Shown here: positions 190-12,668 of the stretch, piece by piece
Numbering within the stretch: the stretch's first letter is position 1
How the letters are laid out: each line of letters opens with the position of its first letter
Source: Dictyostelium discoideum
Taxonomy: Eukaryota
Length of the DNA: 64,000 bases
NCBI GenBank assembly: GCA_000004695.1
Contig: CM000154.2
Location: 160,001 to 224,000, forward strand
Direction of reading: 5' to 3'
Position numbers and translations under genes: made by a program
The notes under the pieces: model-generated
Told to the model about the DNA's origin: nothing
Database searches by the model: none
The model's input: only the letters and a program-made list of their open reading frames with translations

Positions 190-642
190 AACAATTATCC
201 AATTTTATTTATTTTTAATATGAATTTAGTATAGATAAATATAAAACTCTAAAATACACAAATCATATTAAAAATAATAAAAAAAAATAAATGTTACCAT
301 TCTTTTTTTTTTTTTTGAATTTTTTTAACCAATTTAAAATTTTATTCTAAAAATAAACCAAATCAAATCAATTTTTTATTTTTTATTTTTTATTTTTTTT
401 ATAAAAATCTATTTTTTTATATAAAATTTATTCCCTACTTGTTGTTCAAAATAAAAAAACAATTACAAAAAATGTGTGTTAAAAAATTAAATTTAAGATT
501 CTAAAAAAAAAAAAAAAAAATTTTATAAAACATAATGATTACATTCATTTTTTTTATATTTTATATCATTTTGTGTATTTTTGAATGTTCTATTTATCTA
601 TACTAAATTCATATTAAAAATAAATAAAATTGAATAATTGTT
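190..642. mobile_element. Putative small non-autonomous (MITE-like) element. Roughly 105-bp imperfect terminal inverted repeats (190..302 and 534..642) flank a 230-bp AT-rich core.
   Basis: The reverse complement of 217..300 (…atttgtgtattttagagttttatatttatctatactaaattcatattaaaaataaataaaattggataattgtt) matches 566..642 (…attttgtgtatttttgaatgttctatttatctatactaaattcatattaaaaataaataaaattgaataattgtt) at about 90% over some 85 bp. The ataattgtt ends lie outermost. A third copy of the same unit lies at 12447..12529. Confidence 0.4.
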
Positions 643-5025: not shown

Positions 5026-8000
5026 TTATTTAATTAATAAAGGATTAATTTTAACAGTATCTAAAGGTGGCCACATTGATTTTAAAATGTTTGGTTTAAT
5101 TGTATTAATATTTAACCAAGATAAATATTGATCAAATAGATAATTTGGATTTTCAATCCATTGTTGTAAGAGTTTTTCTTTGGTTGAGATACCTTTTGAT
5201 TTGAGGGTTGAAATTAATTGATAAACTTTTGATTGAGTATTCATTTGAACGATAATTGAAGGATTTGTATTTAAATAGGGTAATAGATATTTTAGAGGTG
5301 AGAAAACTTCGCCCTCTAGTAAAGCCTTGGCAAAGTAACGTATTGATTCCAATTTATCAGGATGATCAATTTTTAGCATTGGCAATTCCCAATGATGAAC
5401 ACCATAATTTGGTTTGATACAACATCTAACACGATCGTGTTTTAGTGAATAATGAGGTGCAGGTTGTTCCAATGGTTTAAACTCTGAACATAATGGTTTA
5501 CCCAATAATGGTAACCAAGATGGATTAATCTCTGTAACCAACTTCATATATGGTCTTGAAGTTTCAATGATATCACAATAGATTACATATTCAGCTTGAG
5601 TATTAACACCACCTAAATTTGAAGTTGGATGAATGAAACATGTTCCATCACCACCACCACTACTATTTGAATATGAGGTTGTGCAAGTTTGATATTCAAT
5701 TAAATGTTTTGGATGATTTTTACCAGTGATTGATTGAGTTTCTTTAACTTTTGAAATTTGATCAATTAAACCAGCTGTTATAACTTGTTTAATGAATAAT
5801 TCTTGTTTTTGAGTTGGTGGTTTAATTGATTGATCAGGATTAACTAAAGTTATAATTGGATTTGAAATTGGATCTAATTCATGATTGGTTTGATTAATTG
5901 AATTTACAATCTCTGTTAATTGATGACGAAGTTTATGAATTTCAGACATTGATTTTGTATTTAAAAAGTTTTGAGAACAAAAATGATCAATATCTTTTGG
6001 TGATTTTCTAATTTGGTAATCATAAGCACCAACAACTTTTAAAATTGATAAAAGATCAGATTCTTTGTGTAACCATTTTCTCATACTATTTCTAAGACGT
6101 TGAAGATGTTTTTGTCTTTCTTCTTTTTCTTTTTCAATAAATTCTTTTTCACTTTGTGATGATGAATCAATTTGTTGTTTTTCATTGTTATCATCATTTT
6201 CATCATTATTTTGATTTGCTTCATAGGCTTCTTTTAAAAATGGATCTTTAACAGTTAAAATTGAAACGATTGCAATGATATAAGGTAAACAATTATGCTC
6301 TTGACCTAATAATAACATTTTAGAATGACGTGGTGAAACTGGAAATTGTGACATTTTCATACCCAATTCAGTGATTGAAAAAGTTTTAACCTCTAAAGCA
6401 CCCAAATTAATTAAAGTACGTAATGCCAATTTCAAAGAAGATTCATCAGGTGGTGTTGGAAATGGAAAACCTGTAATTTTTTGAATACCCATACTTTTCA
6501 TTTGTAATATCATACCATCGATTGGGATCATTAAAATTTCAGGTTTTGAAAATTGTTGGAAATGATCATTGAAAACAGCACTTGAATAAATTCTATAGCA
6601 ATGACCTGGACCTGTTCTACCTGCTCTACCTGCTCTTTGATCTGCTGATGCTTTAGATGTCCAACCAACTTCAAAACTACTAATACCATTATCCTTATTA
6701 TAATATCTTTGTTTAACTCTACCTGTATCAACTACATATTTAATATTTGGTATTGTTAATGATGTCTCTGCCAAATTTGTTGCAACTACTACCAATCTTG
6801 ATCCTAATGGTGGTGTTTGAAAAACTCTCATTTGTTTTGATGTTGGTAATGTTGAATATAATGGTAATACAAATAATGGTCCTGCTGGTTTTTCATCATC
6901 TTCTGTAATTATATCTTCTTTACCAATTTCAAATTCATCTTCATCTTCATTATTATTATTATTATTATTTTCATTTTCATCAACTTCTTCTTCTTCTTCA
7001 ACTTCTTCTTCTTCAACTTCTTCTTCTTCAACCTCCTCTTCTTCAACCTCCTCTTCTTCAACCTCCTCTTCTTCAACCTCCTCTTCTTCAACCTCCTCTT
7101 CTTCAACTTCTTCTTCCTCTACTTCTTCTTCATCATTAACAATAAATTGATCATCATTTAAAACATCTAAATTTTCAATATCATCATTATCATCATCATT
7201 ATCATTATCATCATCATCATCATGATTATCAATATTAAAAGTATCATCAACAGTATTATCAAAATCAAAATCTTCAGCATCACCATAAACTAAATTACTT
7301 GATTTAATATTATTTTGATTTTCTTGATCATCAGATTTAAATTGTTGATTAATTTTATCAATTTCAACTTTAAAAGATTTATTGATTGCTTTAATTGGGA
7401 AAGCTCTTCTTAATTTTGAACAAAGATATTCAATTTCTTGTTTACCTGTAACGAAAACTAAAATACCACCAGATGGTAGGTTTTTATGAATTTTCACCAC
7501 TTTTTTATAACATTCATCGATATAGTTAACTAATTCAGTTTTCTTATTGAAATGGATTGTAACAGGGAATTGTCTAGTTGGTATATTGATGACTGGTGGT
7601 GGTCTAGAAAATAAAGTTTTATTCTTTGTAAAATCTTCAACTCTTAAAGTTGCTGACATCACCACTAATTTCAATGGGTAAATCATATCCACACCAATGG
7701 TACCATTGGCTTTATTAGTAGCCAATGATTTTAAATATAATTTCTTTCTTAATGGTACAATTCTTGATAAAAGTCCAATTAAAATATCAGTATTTAAATT
7801 ACGTTCGTGTGCTTCGTCGATTAAAATTGAAGAATATTGTGATAGGAGGAAATCAGTTTGAACCTCTCTCATTAAGATACCATCAGTCATAAATTTGATT
7901 TTATTAACACTACTATCTAATTTCTTATCATAACGAATTTGGTAACCCACTTCCTTACCAAACTCAACGTTTAACTCTTCAGCGACACGTTTTGCTGTTG

Positions 8001-11686: not shown

Positions 11687-12097
11687 ATTATAAATGTCTG
11701 TTTTAATGTATCATTACATTTGGAGAAGAAGAAAAAAAAAAAATAAAAAAAAAAAATAAAAAAAATAAAAAAAATAAAAAAATAAAAAATTTCATCGTTG
11801 TGACAAAACATTACCTGTTCAAAAAAAAAAAAAAAATATTTTTTTTTTTTTTTTTTTTTGCGACACAATAAGTTTTCATTTTAAAAAATAAATAAAAAAA
11901 ATATTTTTAAATATCTAAAGATTCTAATCTCTTTTATTAGTTTTTTAAATTTTATTAGATAAACTAACACCAATGGTCAAACAAAATGTTTTTGCTGAAA
12001 TTAATAATGGTTTTTTCAAACTCATTCAGTTTTAACTTCGAATGGTTTAATCTATGGCGCAAAGTTTAGAAATGTTAATGACGATTTTCAAGTGAAA

Positions 12098-12363
12098 CAG
12101 GAATTTGAAAAAAACCACTTCCCAAAGTCGTATCAGGTGGCCAATTTTTATCAAGGAAAGCTGTATCATCAAGTGCCTCCCTCTGTCTCTTGATGATTCA
12201 GCCTTCCTTGACAAAAATTGCCCACCTGATACGACTGGGAAGTTGGTTTTTCAAATTCAATCTGTAGAACAATTTCTTGATTGACGAAAGGCATATATTA
12301 TATATTCACCCAATATTTTGATTCTTCTCTGATCGAGTGAATATATAATATATAAATTTTAAA
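12098..12363. repeat. Hairpin-forming element: a near-perfect 167-bp palindrome (12098..12264; 75-76-bp arms about 90% complementary, 15-nt loop) plus a second perfect 17-bp-arm hairpin (12293..12309 / 12347..12363). Candidate MITE or structured ncRNA.
   Basis: The left arm caggaatttgaaaaaaaccacttcccaaagtcgtatcaggtggccaatttttatcaaggaaagctgtatcatcaag reverse-complements the right arm cttgatgattcagccttccttgacaaaaattgcccacctgatacgactgggaagttggtttttcaaattcaatctg with about eight mismatches. Around the loop tgcctccctctgtct, complementary sub-stems tcaaggaaagctg/cagccttccttga and atcatcaag/cttgatgat continue the palindrome. Downstream, atatattatatattcac...gtgaatatataatatat is a perfect inverted repeat. 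The element is markedly more G+C-rich than its surroundings. Confidence 0.6.
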
Positions 12364-12446
12364 ATAAAAAATATACTCACCCATCAAACCAATTTTTTTA
12401 TTTTTTTTTTTTTTTTTTTTCATATCTATTTTTTTTATTATAAATG

Positions 12447-12529
12447 TCATTTTTTGTATTTTTGTGTGCTCTATTTATCTATACTAAATTCATATTAAAA
12501 AAAATGAATGTAATCATTCTAGAATTGTT
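12447..12529 (+). repeat. Third copy of the dispersed repeat unit (tcatttt..gtatttttgtgtgctctatttatctatactaaattcatattaaaa…aatgtaatcattctagaattgtt), immediately downstream of the palindromic element.
   Basis: A 58-bp core is about 90% identical to 567..625 and to the reverse complement of 217..275. The tail aatgaatgtaatcattct resembles aaatgttaccattct at 285..302. Confidence 0.55.
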
Positions 12530-12539
12530 TTTTTATTTT

Positions 12540-12668
12540 TTATTTTTGTGATAAAATATAATTTTCCATATTTGAATATACAATACTACCTAACCCACTT
12601 GCAGGGTCAAAACCAGTTATAGCCTTATAACCAAATTCACAGCAATACATACGATTACAATTATTATT

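Follow-up and report, generated by a model that had tools for sequence, protein, structure and literature searches.

Three copies of a repeat unit in the window

All repeat searches reported here covered one window of 64,000 nt from Dictyostelium discoideum AX4 chromosome 5 (DDB0232432 = NC_007091.3, positions 160001-224000, plus strand), and coordinates are those of this window unless a chromosome position is given. An inverted pair of similar segments at 190-642 (chr5:160,190-160,642) sits in the divergent intergenic region between a minus-strand open reading frame (ORF) and a plus-strand gene, and a third, solitary copy of the same segment lies 12 kb away in the mir-1176 locus. The ORF on the left runs off the window; its putative ATG is at 52-50 (-) and its first residues are MDKHHNHECNGHECNHV. 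The gene on the right starts at 889 (+; MMDPYATTHRRLKQIQ), and this start is also kept in D. purpureum. We refer to the left arm of the pair as unit A, to the right arm as unit B and to the solo copy as unit C.

Unit A occupies positions 190-305 on the minus strand (nhmmer profile match 306-184, E = 9.6e-23) and reads GAATGGTAACATTTATTTTTTTTT … AATTGGATAATTGTT on that strand. Unit B extends from 531 to 642 on the plus strand (match 527-648, E = 9e-26) and has the sequence (AT)AATGATTACATTCATTTTTTTTA … AATTGAATAATTGTT, and unit C from 12419 to 12529, also on the plus strand (match 12419-12524, E = 1.8e-22). The limits of A and B were set with the help of alignments, and those of C with a MAFFT alignment in which the terminal AATTGTT common to the units ends at 12529 in C. 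A profile constructed from the three units matched just A, B and C within the window, the next match having an E-value of 8.4. Stringent self-comparison of the window with a complexity filter left A/B, B/C and the mir-1176 hairpin as the only surviving repeats. The three-copy repeat stands apart from the usual AT-rich background.

An earlier note on this DNA had described an inverted pair at 190-302 and 534-642 and a unit shared with the 12.4-kb locus, and both observations were borne out. Stringent BLAST aligned 570-656 with 262-176 at 93.1% identity over 87 nt (A/B), and 12447-12501 with 566-620 at 92.7% over 55 nt (B/C); looser scoring extended the C match to 12428-12501 (87.8% over 74 nt). 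Without gaps, the arms 160-284 and 548-672 were 82% complementary across 125 nt, and a gapped local alignment paired the reverse complement of 165-308 with 527-666, such that the A/B similarity ran on through the flanking runs and ~20-30 bp into the DNA between the units. This AT-rich spacer, for which the earlier estimate of ~230 bp was close, spans 306-533 (228 bp), or 306-530 with B counted from 531. Inverted symmetry fades into its edges, where homopolymer runs and (A)GAAT… occur at both sides. No second copy of the spacer was found in the window by the profile search or by stringent self-BLAST, and comparison of the spacer or the A/B flanks with the rest of the mir-1176 locus gave low-complexity matches only. 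Neither the unit (~110-115 bp) nor the composite (~450-500 bp) contains a real ORF, only low-complexity artefact ORFs.

The unit is an interrupted palindrome

The repeated module is the unit of ~110-115 bp and not the 450-bp composite, because the third copy is solo, having neither the 228-bp spacer nor a partner. The organization of the unit became apparent from a 12-mer. The earlier note had reported matches to it at 6-17 and 536-548; exact copies do exist, and their positions are 5-16 and 535-546. The 12-mer also occurs exactly at 12506-12517, in the opposite orientation, and this occurrence revealed that the unit is internally palindromic. The 5' terminal arm of the unit is best kept in B (532-556, +), where it matches the 3' arm of C, and the 3' terminal arm is best kept in C (12496-12520, +; AAAAAAAATGAATGTAATCATTCT), as judged by matches across copies. 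Positions 534-556 are identical to the reverse complement of 12496-12518 (23/23, E = 2e-8), and the 5' arm of A, when reverse-complemented (plus strand, 280-303), agrees with 12497-12520 at 21 of 24 positions. The 25-mer AGAATGATTACATTCATTTTTTTTA was found only in the 5' arm of B and the 3' arm of C, compared with 0.01 expected.

Unit A alone folds as a hairpin (z = -4.4 as RNA and z = -3.7 as DNA), and units B and C alone gave no significant RNA structure (z about -0.6). One arm has decayed in B and one in C. Because the arms match between B and C and between A and C, and because unit A folds, the ancestral unit would have consisted of inverted termini of ~25-35 nt around a non-palindromic centre. 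Homology among the copies stops sharply at the palindrome ends.

The remaining copy of the 12-mer, at 5-16, had been taken as a hint of a further degenerate copy. This suggestion was not borne out, as the sequence there has no extended similarity to the unit. The 12-mer falls within the first codons of the left ORF (…HECNGHECNH…). We note that the internal HECN repeat of this ORF (5-52, -) yields GAATGTAAT twice, one of which is the exact 12-mer of the unit arm, probably by coincidence. A degenerate fourth copy within 1-150, as this 12-mer would suggest, was rejected on the same ground, since the alignment scores were 37-38, compared with a 90th percentile of 38 for random 150-nt pieces of the window.

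Conservation of an invariant 30-nt core

A 30-mer, TATTTATCTATACTAAATTCATATTAAAAA, is present as an exact match in all three copies, at 212-241 (-) in A, 591-620 (+) in B and 12472-12501 (+) in C. A 30-mer in three copies was not obtained in any of 100 shuffles with up to 3 mismatches allowed, in agreement with the earlier statement that a chance origin is very unlikely. The core is also better conserved than the remainder of the unit. The C-B and C-A alignments contain 0 differences in the 30 core columns and 31-37 in the other ~90, and this excess is significant after Bonferroni correction (P ~2e-3 and 4e-4 for the two alignments). Between A and B, the outer 52 columns, comprising the 30-column core and 22 columns beyond it, contain a single difference, the G/A that had been quoted in the earlier note; the inner 65 columns contain 16 differences, gaps counted. 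A and B share 42 nt without mismatch, and the 30 nt held in common with C show none either. A 21-mer from the core was found once among metagenome contigs and once among prokaryote contigs, and both matches were dismissed as chance because their flanks were unrelated.

Homopolymer flanks and the inverted duplication

Every unit abuts homopolymer A/T runs. At the outer end of A lies a T14 run (176-189), which in the orientation of the unit reads A14 followed by GAA. T14 followed by G (303-317, +) is found at its inner end and resembles the T-run-plus-G pattern of start sites. A run of 18 A residues (503-520) lies near the inner end of B, with TTTTATAAAACAT between the two, and the outer end of B is followed by an A-rich run (A8 G A5 C AAAT A22; 643-683). 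Read in unit orientation, A has A14-GAA on both sides and C lies between T21 and T7. Relative to the flanking A-runs, the orientation of C is opposite to that of A and B, as would be expected of a DNA element inserting in either orientation. A random boundary in AT-rich DNA abuts a run of at least 8 with P ~0.046 per flank.

Target-site duplications around 190 and 642 had been proposed as a check on transposition. Inspection of the flank sequences identified no direct target-site duplication around the composite. T14 lies to the left of the composite and an A-run to its right; the two are mutually inverted and continue the inverted repeat. TTAA occurs at 188-191 and again at 641-644 but, being a palindrome, is uninformative. 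At the level of the individual unit, the A14-GAA around A and the T-runs around C are low-complexity sequences that are compatible with insertion into a homopolymer tract, though not diagnostic of it.

Because the flanks are part of the inverted repeat, we conclude that the 190-642 composite arose when one unit and its flanks were duplicated locally in inverted orientation, and that it is no transposon of 450 bp bounded by terminal inverted repeats. The solo occurrence of C agrees with this conclusion. Derived changes in the 3' arm are common to A and B, as are the flanks, and for this reason A and B are best seen as one insertion that was later duplicated in inverted orientation. The earlier proposal of a structure resembling a miniature inverted-repeat transposable element (MITE) was thus correct in part. 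A shared unit that is short, non-coding and built like an element with terminal inverted repeats does exist, but the 450-bp composite is not the mobile unit, given that C is solo.

A plain segmental or repair-mediated duplication, with neither mobility nor function, is an alternative account of these data. An intergenic piece of ~115 bp would have been duplicated in two events, one spanning 12 kb and the other producing an inverted copy nearby, and the internal palindrome would be an older small inverted duplication of like kind. The A/B event certainly was an inverted duplication, flanks included, no clear target-site duplication was seen, all copies lie within 12.4 kb on one chromosome arm with none in the other 51 kb of the window, and template switching readily occurs in AT-rich palindromes and homopolymer runs. 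Weighing against this history are the limits of homology, which in independent copies lie at the ends of the palindrome, the long homopolymer runs that both independent sites abut, and the non-uniform conservation of the core. We consider it possible but unlikely.

Copy C is the 3' trailer of pri-mir-1176

The primary transcript of ddi-mir-1176 has been mapped previously (PMC6161686). Its T-rich start-site motif was placed at DDB0232432:171835-171860 (PMC6161686 Table S3, Liao et al. 2018), which corresponds to 11835-11860 in the window and consists of T21 followed by G; the transcription start site (TSS) is the G at 11860. This G was reported to be 281 nt upstream of mir-5p (PMC6161686), and miR-1176-5p (CCAAUUUUUAUCAAGGAAAGC) matches 12141-12161. 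The hairpin at NC_007091.3:172131..172231 (PMC11014262 Table S4) corresponds to 12131-12231, and the published primer for 3' rapid amplification of cDNA ends (3'-RACE) matches the mir-1176 hairpin on the plus strand. The 3' ends of wild-type pri-mir-1176 were at +388 in 5 of 9 clones and between +341 and +373 in the other 4 (PMC6161686), i.e. at 12528 (major) and 12481-12513. In drnB- cells the ends map to 12383 and 12388 (PMC6161686). The stop codon of the convergent gene was reported to end at +400 (PMC6161686), equivalent to 12540, in exact agreement with the ORF end at 12540. The published transcript therefore spans 11860-12528 on the plus strand.

Copy C (12419-12529, or +279 to +389 counted from mir-5p) is located between the TSS and the 3' end that were mapped for pri-mir-1176; it is therefore part of the published transcript and constitutes its 3' trailer, the last ~110 nt. 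At 12528, the major RNA end coincides with the final bases of the unit (…GAATTGT|T), and the other four ends (12481-12513) fall inside it. The sequence ACCCATCAAA near 12380 also lies inside pri-mir-1176.

The convergent minus-strand gene is sedolisin-like, with Pro-kumamolisin and subtilase domains, and its stop codon occupies 12540-12542. On this strand, unit C starts 10 nt past the stop codon and ends just beyond AATAAA (12439-12434). It is probably nearly coextensive with the 3' untranslated region (UTR) of the sedolisin-like gene. The possibility that the unit is a 3' UTR cassette duplicated together with this gene was rejected, because the homology stops short of the sedolisin coding region and A/B is not downstream of any ORF.

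Several other features of this locus were observed. Within 12419-12542, the mapped end of pri-mir-1176 is 12 nt from the sedolisin-like stop codon, and the two transcripts should overlap in antisense by ~100 nt, equal to the repeat unit, making them a potential natural sense-antisense pair. In the region 12090-12370 the antisense strand folds better than the plus strand (-127.9 versus -114.4 kcal/mol), and it is the plus strand that is transcribed. A second near-perfect AT-rich hairpin, atatattatatattcac…gtgaatatataatatat (12290-12352, +), is located directly downstream of the pre-miRNA within pri-mir-1176 and ~30 nt upstream of the drnB- 3' ends at 12383/12388; it is not discussed in the sections of PMC6161686 consulted. 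At 12224-12248 the published 3'-RACE primer F1022 (GCCACCTGATACGACTGGGAAGTT) differs by one C from AX4 (GCCCACCTGATACGACTGGGAAGTT); the strains may differ, the primer may have been designed that way, or the text may have been extracted incorrectly.

As a further alternative, A and B could have originated by retrocopying of the 3' end of an A-tailed RNA such as pri-mir-1176. Homology between the copies stops within 1 nt of the mapped end at 12528 (…AATTGTT), A14 follows A and A8 follows B whereas C is followed by T-runs, all of these being low-complexity sequences, and AATAAA occurs ~20 nt before the end in both A and B. Oligo(A)-tailed species of pri-mir-1176 have been described (PMC6161686), and a direct repeat, A14-GAA, flanks A, although it is of low complexity. 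We nevertheless find this history highly improbable. The 5' boundary of the homology is the start of the palindrome, which 5' truncation does not predict. C has a degenerate 5' arm, and it is the 3' arm of C to which the 5' arms of A and B correspond, which argues that present-day C was not the template, and C itself is flanked by A-runs in the opposite orientation. The D. discoideum non-long-terminal-repeat retrotransposons TRE5 and TRE3 integrate next to tRNA genes. A tRNA scan of the window identified no tRNA gene, which argues against a TRE-type retroelement context.

Candidate functions of the unit

According to PMC6161686, pri-mir-1176 is not polyadenylated, and the authors stress 'distinct termination' without a canonical poly(A) signal. 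One conceivable role of the unit is to define the 3' ends of RNA polymerase II transcripts, or to terminate them, as a functional element that works in either orientation. C would set the end of pri-mir-1176, its opposite strand would supply the AATAAA region of the sedolisin gene, and A and B would stop transcripts leaving the 228-bp spacer before they reach the neighbouring promoters. In keeping with such a role, the major end (5 of 9 clones) lies on the last bases of the unit with the other four ends inside it, the stretch from the sedolisin stop (12540-12542) to AATAAA (12439-12434) approximates the unit, and the 30-nt core is invariant in three copies whose flanks have diverged. The T14-G motif at 303-317 is a candidate start site for a transcript of the spacer, as a T-run-plus-G motif was reported upstream of D. 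discoideum pri-miRNA and mRNA start sites (PMC6161686). However, runs of at least 12 T followed by G are common, with 23 sites in 64 kb, including the mapped pri-mir-1176 TSS motif at 11839-11860. Transcript data exist for a single copy, and the RNAs of units B and C are not significantly structured. The convergent gene or the T-run after the unit could just as well determine where the RNA ends. A catalogue of long non-coding RNAs (lncRNAs) lists none on chr5 from 72 to 321 kb (PMC5295588 File S4), but it also misses pri-mir-1176. We regard a 3'-end element as quite unlikely. [quoted passage not shown]

RNA from the region 150-680 is predicted to fold as a single long hairpin on either strand (z = -11.9 and -13.0). 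By analogy with the plant model of miRNA birth, the pair might be a young hairpin small-RNA locus, either a proto-miRNA or a source of endogenous small interfering RNA (siRNA), that arose by inverted duplication of its target. A transcript of 160-672 would fold into a stem of ~140 bp, and its small RNAs would be perfect matches to a stretch of 30 nt or more in both the pri-mir-1176 trailer and the sedolisin 3' UTR. The 42 nt identical between A and B and the 30 identical nt shared with C are consistent with this proposal, as are the location of the partner copy in a lineage-specific miRNA gene and the derivation of other D. discoideum miRNAs from the repetitive element thug-S. On the other hand, the region chr5:160.2-160.6 kb is absent from the miRNA lists of PMC6161686 (Tables S1/S3) and PMC11014262 (Table S4), the lncRNA catalogue (PMC5295588 File S4) has no entry there and no transcript is documented. 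The stem is almost purely A-U, and the loop of ~220 nt is unlike known D. discoideum pre-miRNAs (83-133 nt). A stable hairpin is thus predicted, but its dimensions are atypical of a miRNA precursor, and we judge such a locus very unlikely.

A bolder combination of these ideas would make the A/B pair a newly born regulatory RNA locus with small RNAs perfectly complementary to the invariant 30-nt core in the pri-mir-1176 trailer and in the 3' UTR of the sedolisin-like gene, the palindromic unit serving in addition as a bidirectional 3'-end element. The locus would be transcribed either as one hairpin or as two convergent transcripts from T-run motifs at the edges of the 228-bp spacer. We see this as a long shot; if true, it would provide a snapshot of the birth of a miRNA or siRNA gene from a MITE-like palindrome in Amoebozoa.

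As an observation apart, each of A and B has a T-run motif on its inner edge that is directed towards the 228-bp spacer, T14-G at 303-317 (+) for A and T18-AG at 520-501 (-) for B. Both resemble the T-run-plus-purine start motif, and if both were used, convergent overlapping transcripts would result. A box C/D small nucleolar RNA, a Class I RNA and a DUSE-driven non-coding RNA were also considered and rejected, as no conserved C/D box, Class I motif or DUSE was found upstream of A/B. A search of the 64-kb window with Rfam at gathering thresholds gave 0 matches. A scan of the window for bacterial promoters and terminators yielded nothing above shuffles and is in any case irrelevant to a eukaryote.

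One further observation concerns DNA elsewhere in the window. The region 6901-7200 has a strongly negative GC skew (-0.955) and lies inside a 1414-aa DEAH-type helicase-like ORF; the skew corresponds to an acidic repeat, (EEEV)n, encoded on the minus strand by this ORF.

Origin of the unit

The explanation that we favour, while giving it slightly less than an even chance, is that the unit is a low-copy, AT-rich, non-coding MITE-like or foldback relic. It is not an established MITE family, the three copies known being those of the 64-kb window. In this scenario an ancestral near-perfect palindrome, AGAATGATTACATTCATTTTTTTTA(…)ATATGA – centre – TCATATTAAAAAAAATGAATGTAATCATTCT, would first have spread by DNA-level copying to at least two chromosome 5 sites, in each case into a homopolymer A/T tract. 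One copy, together with ~20-30 bp of flank, would then have been duplicated locally in inverted orientation, giving rise to the A/B pair (165-308 / 527-666). Copy C would have come to lie between two convergent transcription units, where it now forms the pri-mir-1176 tail and probably most of the sedolisin-like 3' UTR. The mobility of the unit, this order of events and its lack of a function of its own are inferred. In favour of this reading are the presence in 64 kb of exactly three copies, a number well above chance expectation, terminal inverted repeats of ~25-35 bp at the level of the unit (the 23/23 and 21/24 matches across copies and the unit A hairpin), the sharp limits of homology and the abutment of homopolymer runs.

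Several results weigh against a transposon relic. Only three copies are known and all lie within 12.4 kb, an arrangement that fits local duplication as well as transposition. There is no unambiguous target-site duplication, as the A14-GAA direct repeat around A is of low complexity and its GAA overlaps the terminal arm. The ends of the unit, AGAATG… and …AATTGTT, do not conform to TGTNR, and no 5-bp duplication was seen; TGTNR termini and a 5-bp duplication were reported for Tdd-4 and Tdd-5 (PMC2836005). The significantly better conservation of the 30-nt core than of the remaining unit is also unexpected. It could reflect constraint, gene conversion or a mutability lower than that of the adjacent T-runs, which are not separable with these data. 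Finally, the 3' boundary of the unit coincides with a mapped 3' end of an RNA (PMC6161686), which a model of a pure junk relic leaves unexplained.

Outside D. discoideum, mir-1176 has no family (PMC11014262 Table S4), which implies that the locus is young. The unit was not found in the orthologous intergenic region of D. purpureum, where the intergenic DNA does not align. When the last exon of the neighbouring gene was used in a homologue search, the matches were confined to D. purpureum and two entries of EukProt.

As a repeat, the unit is of little importance. Most eukaryotic genomes can be expected to contain small palindromic relics of low copy number like this one, which lies in AT-rich intergenic DNA. 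If more copies were present in the genome, it would represent a new family for the D. discoideum repeat catalogue and a further link between a repeat and a lineage-specific miRNA.

Comparison with known systems

The unit resembles MITEs and foldback elements in several respects. It is ~110 bp long, non-coding and AT-rich, has terminal inverted repeats, is capable of forming a hairpin, occurs in either orientation and is situated in intergenic or UTR DNA close to genes. It differs from them in that target-site duplications are not demonstrable and that the three known copies are all local within the 64-kb window. The termini of classical MITEs are usually their best-conserved part, whereas in this unit it is the internal 30-nt core. 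A search of the D. discoideum literature for a small MITE-like or palindromic element found nothing specific.

The same genome carries thug-S and thug-T, DDT-S and Tdd-4 and Tdd-5, all of which are several hundred bp to kb in length. The ends of the unit are not the TGTNR of Tdd-4/Tdd-5 (Ginger2). The likeness to thug-S lies in the overlap with miRNA biology, since multicopy miRNAs derive from thug-S.

In common with plant-type proto-miRNA loci formed by inverted duplication of a target sequence, and with MITE-derived miRNA hairpins, the A/B pair is an inverted duplication that would give a long near-perfect hairpin and has perfect blocks of at least 30 nt in common with another transcribed locus. 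Unlike these loci, the A/B pair is known from its sequence alone, with an almost pure A-U stem and a loop of ~220 nt.

The most direct connection is with pri-mir-1176. The published descriptions consulted mention no repeat in its trailer, and A and B, 12 kb away, are linked to no reported miRNA. Copy C, however, is physically part of this transcript, and the mapped 3' end of the RNA coincides with the end of the unit.

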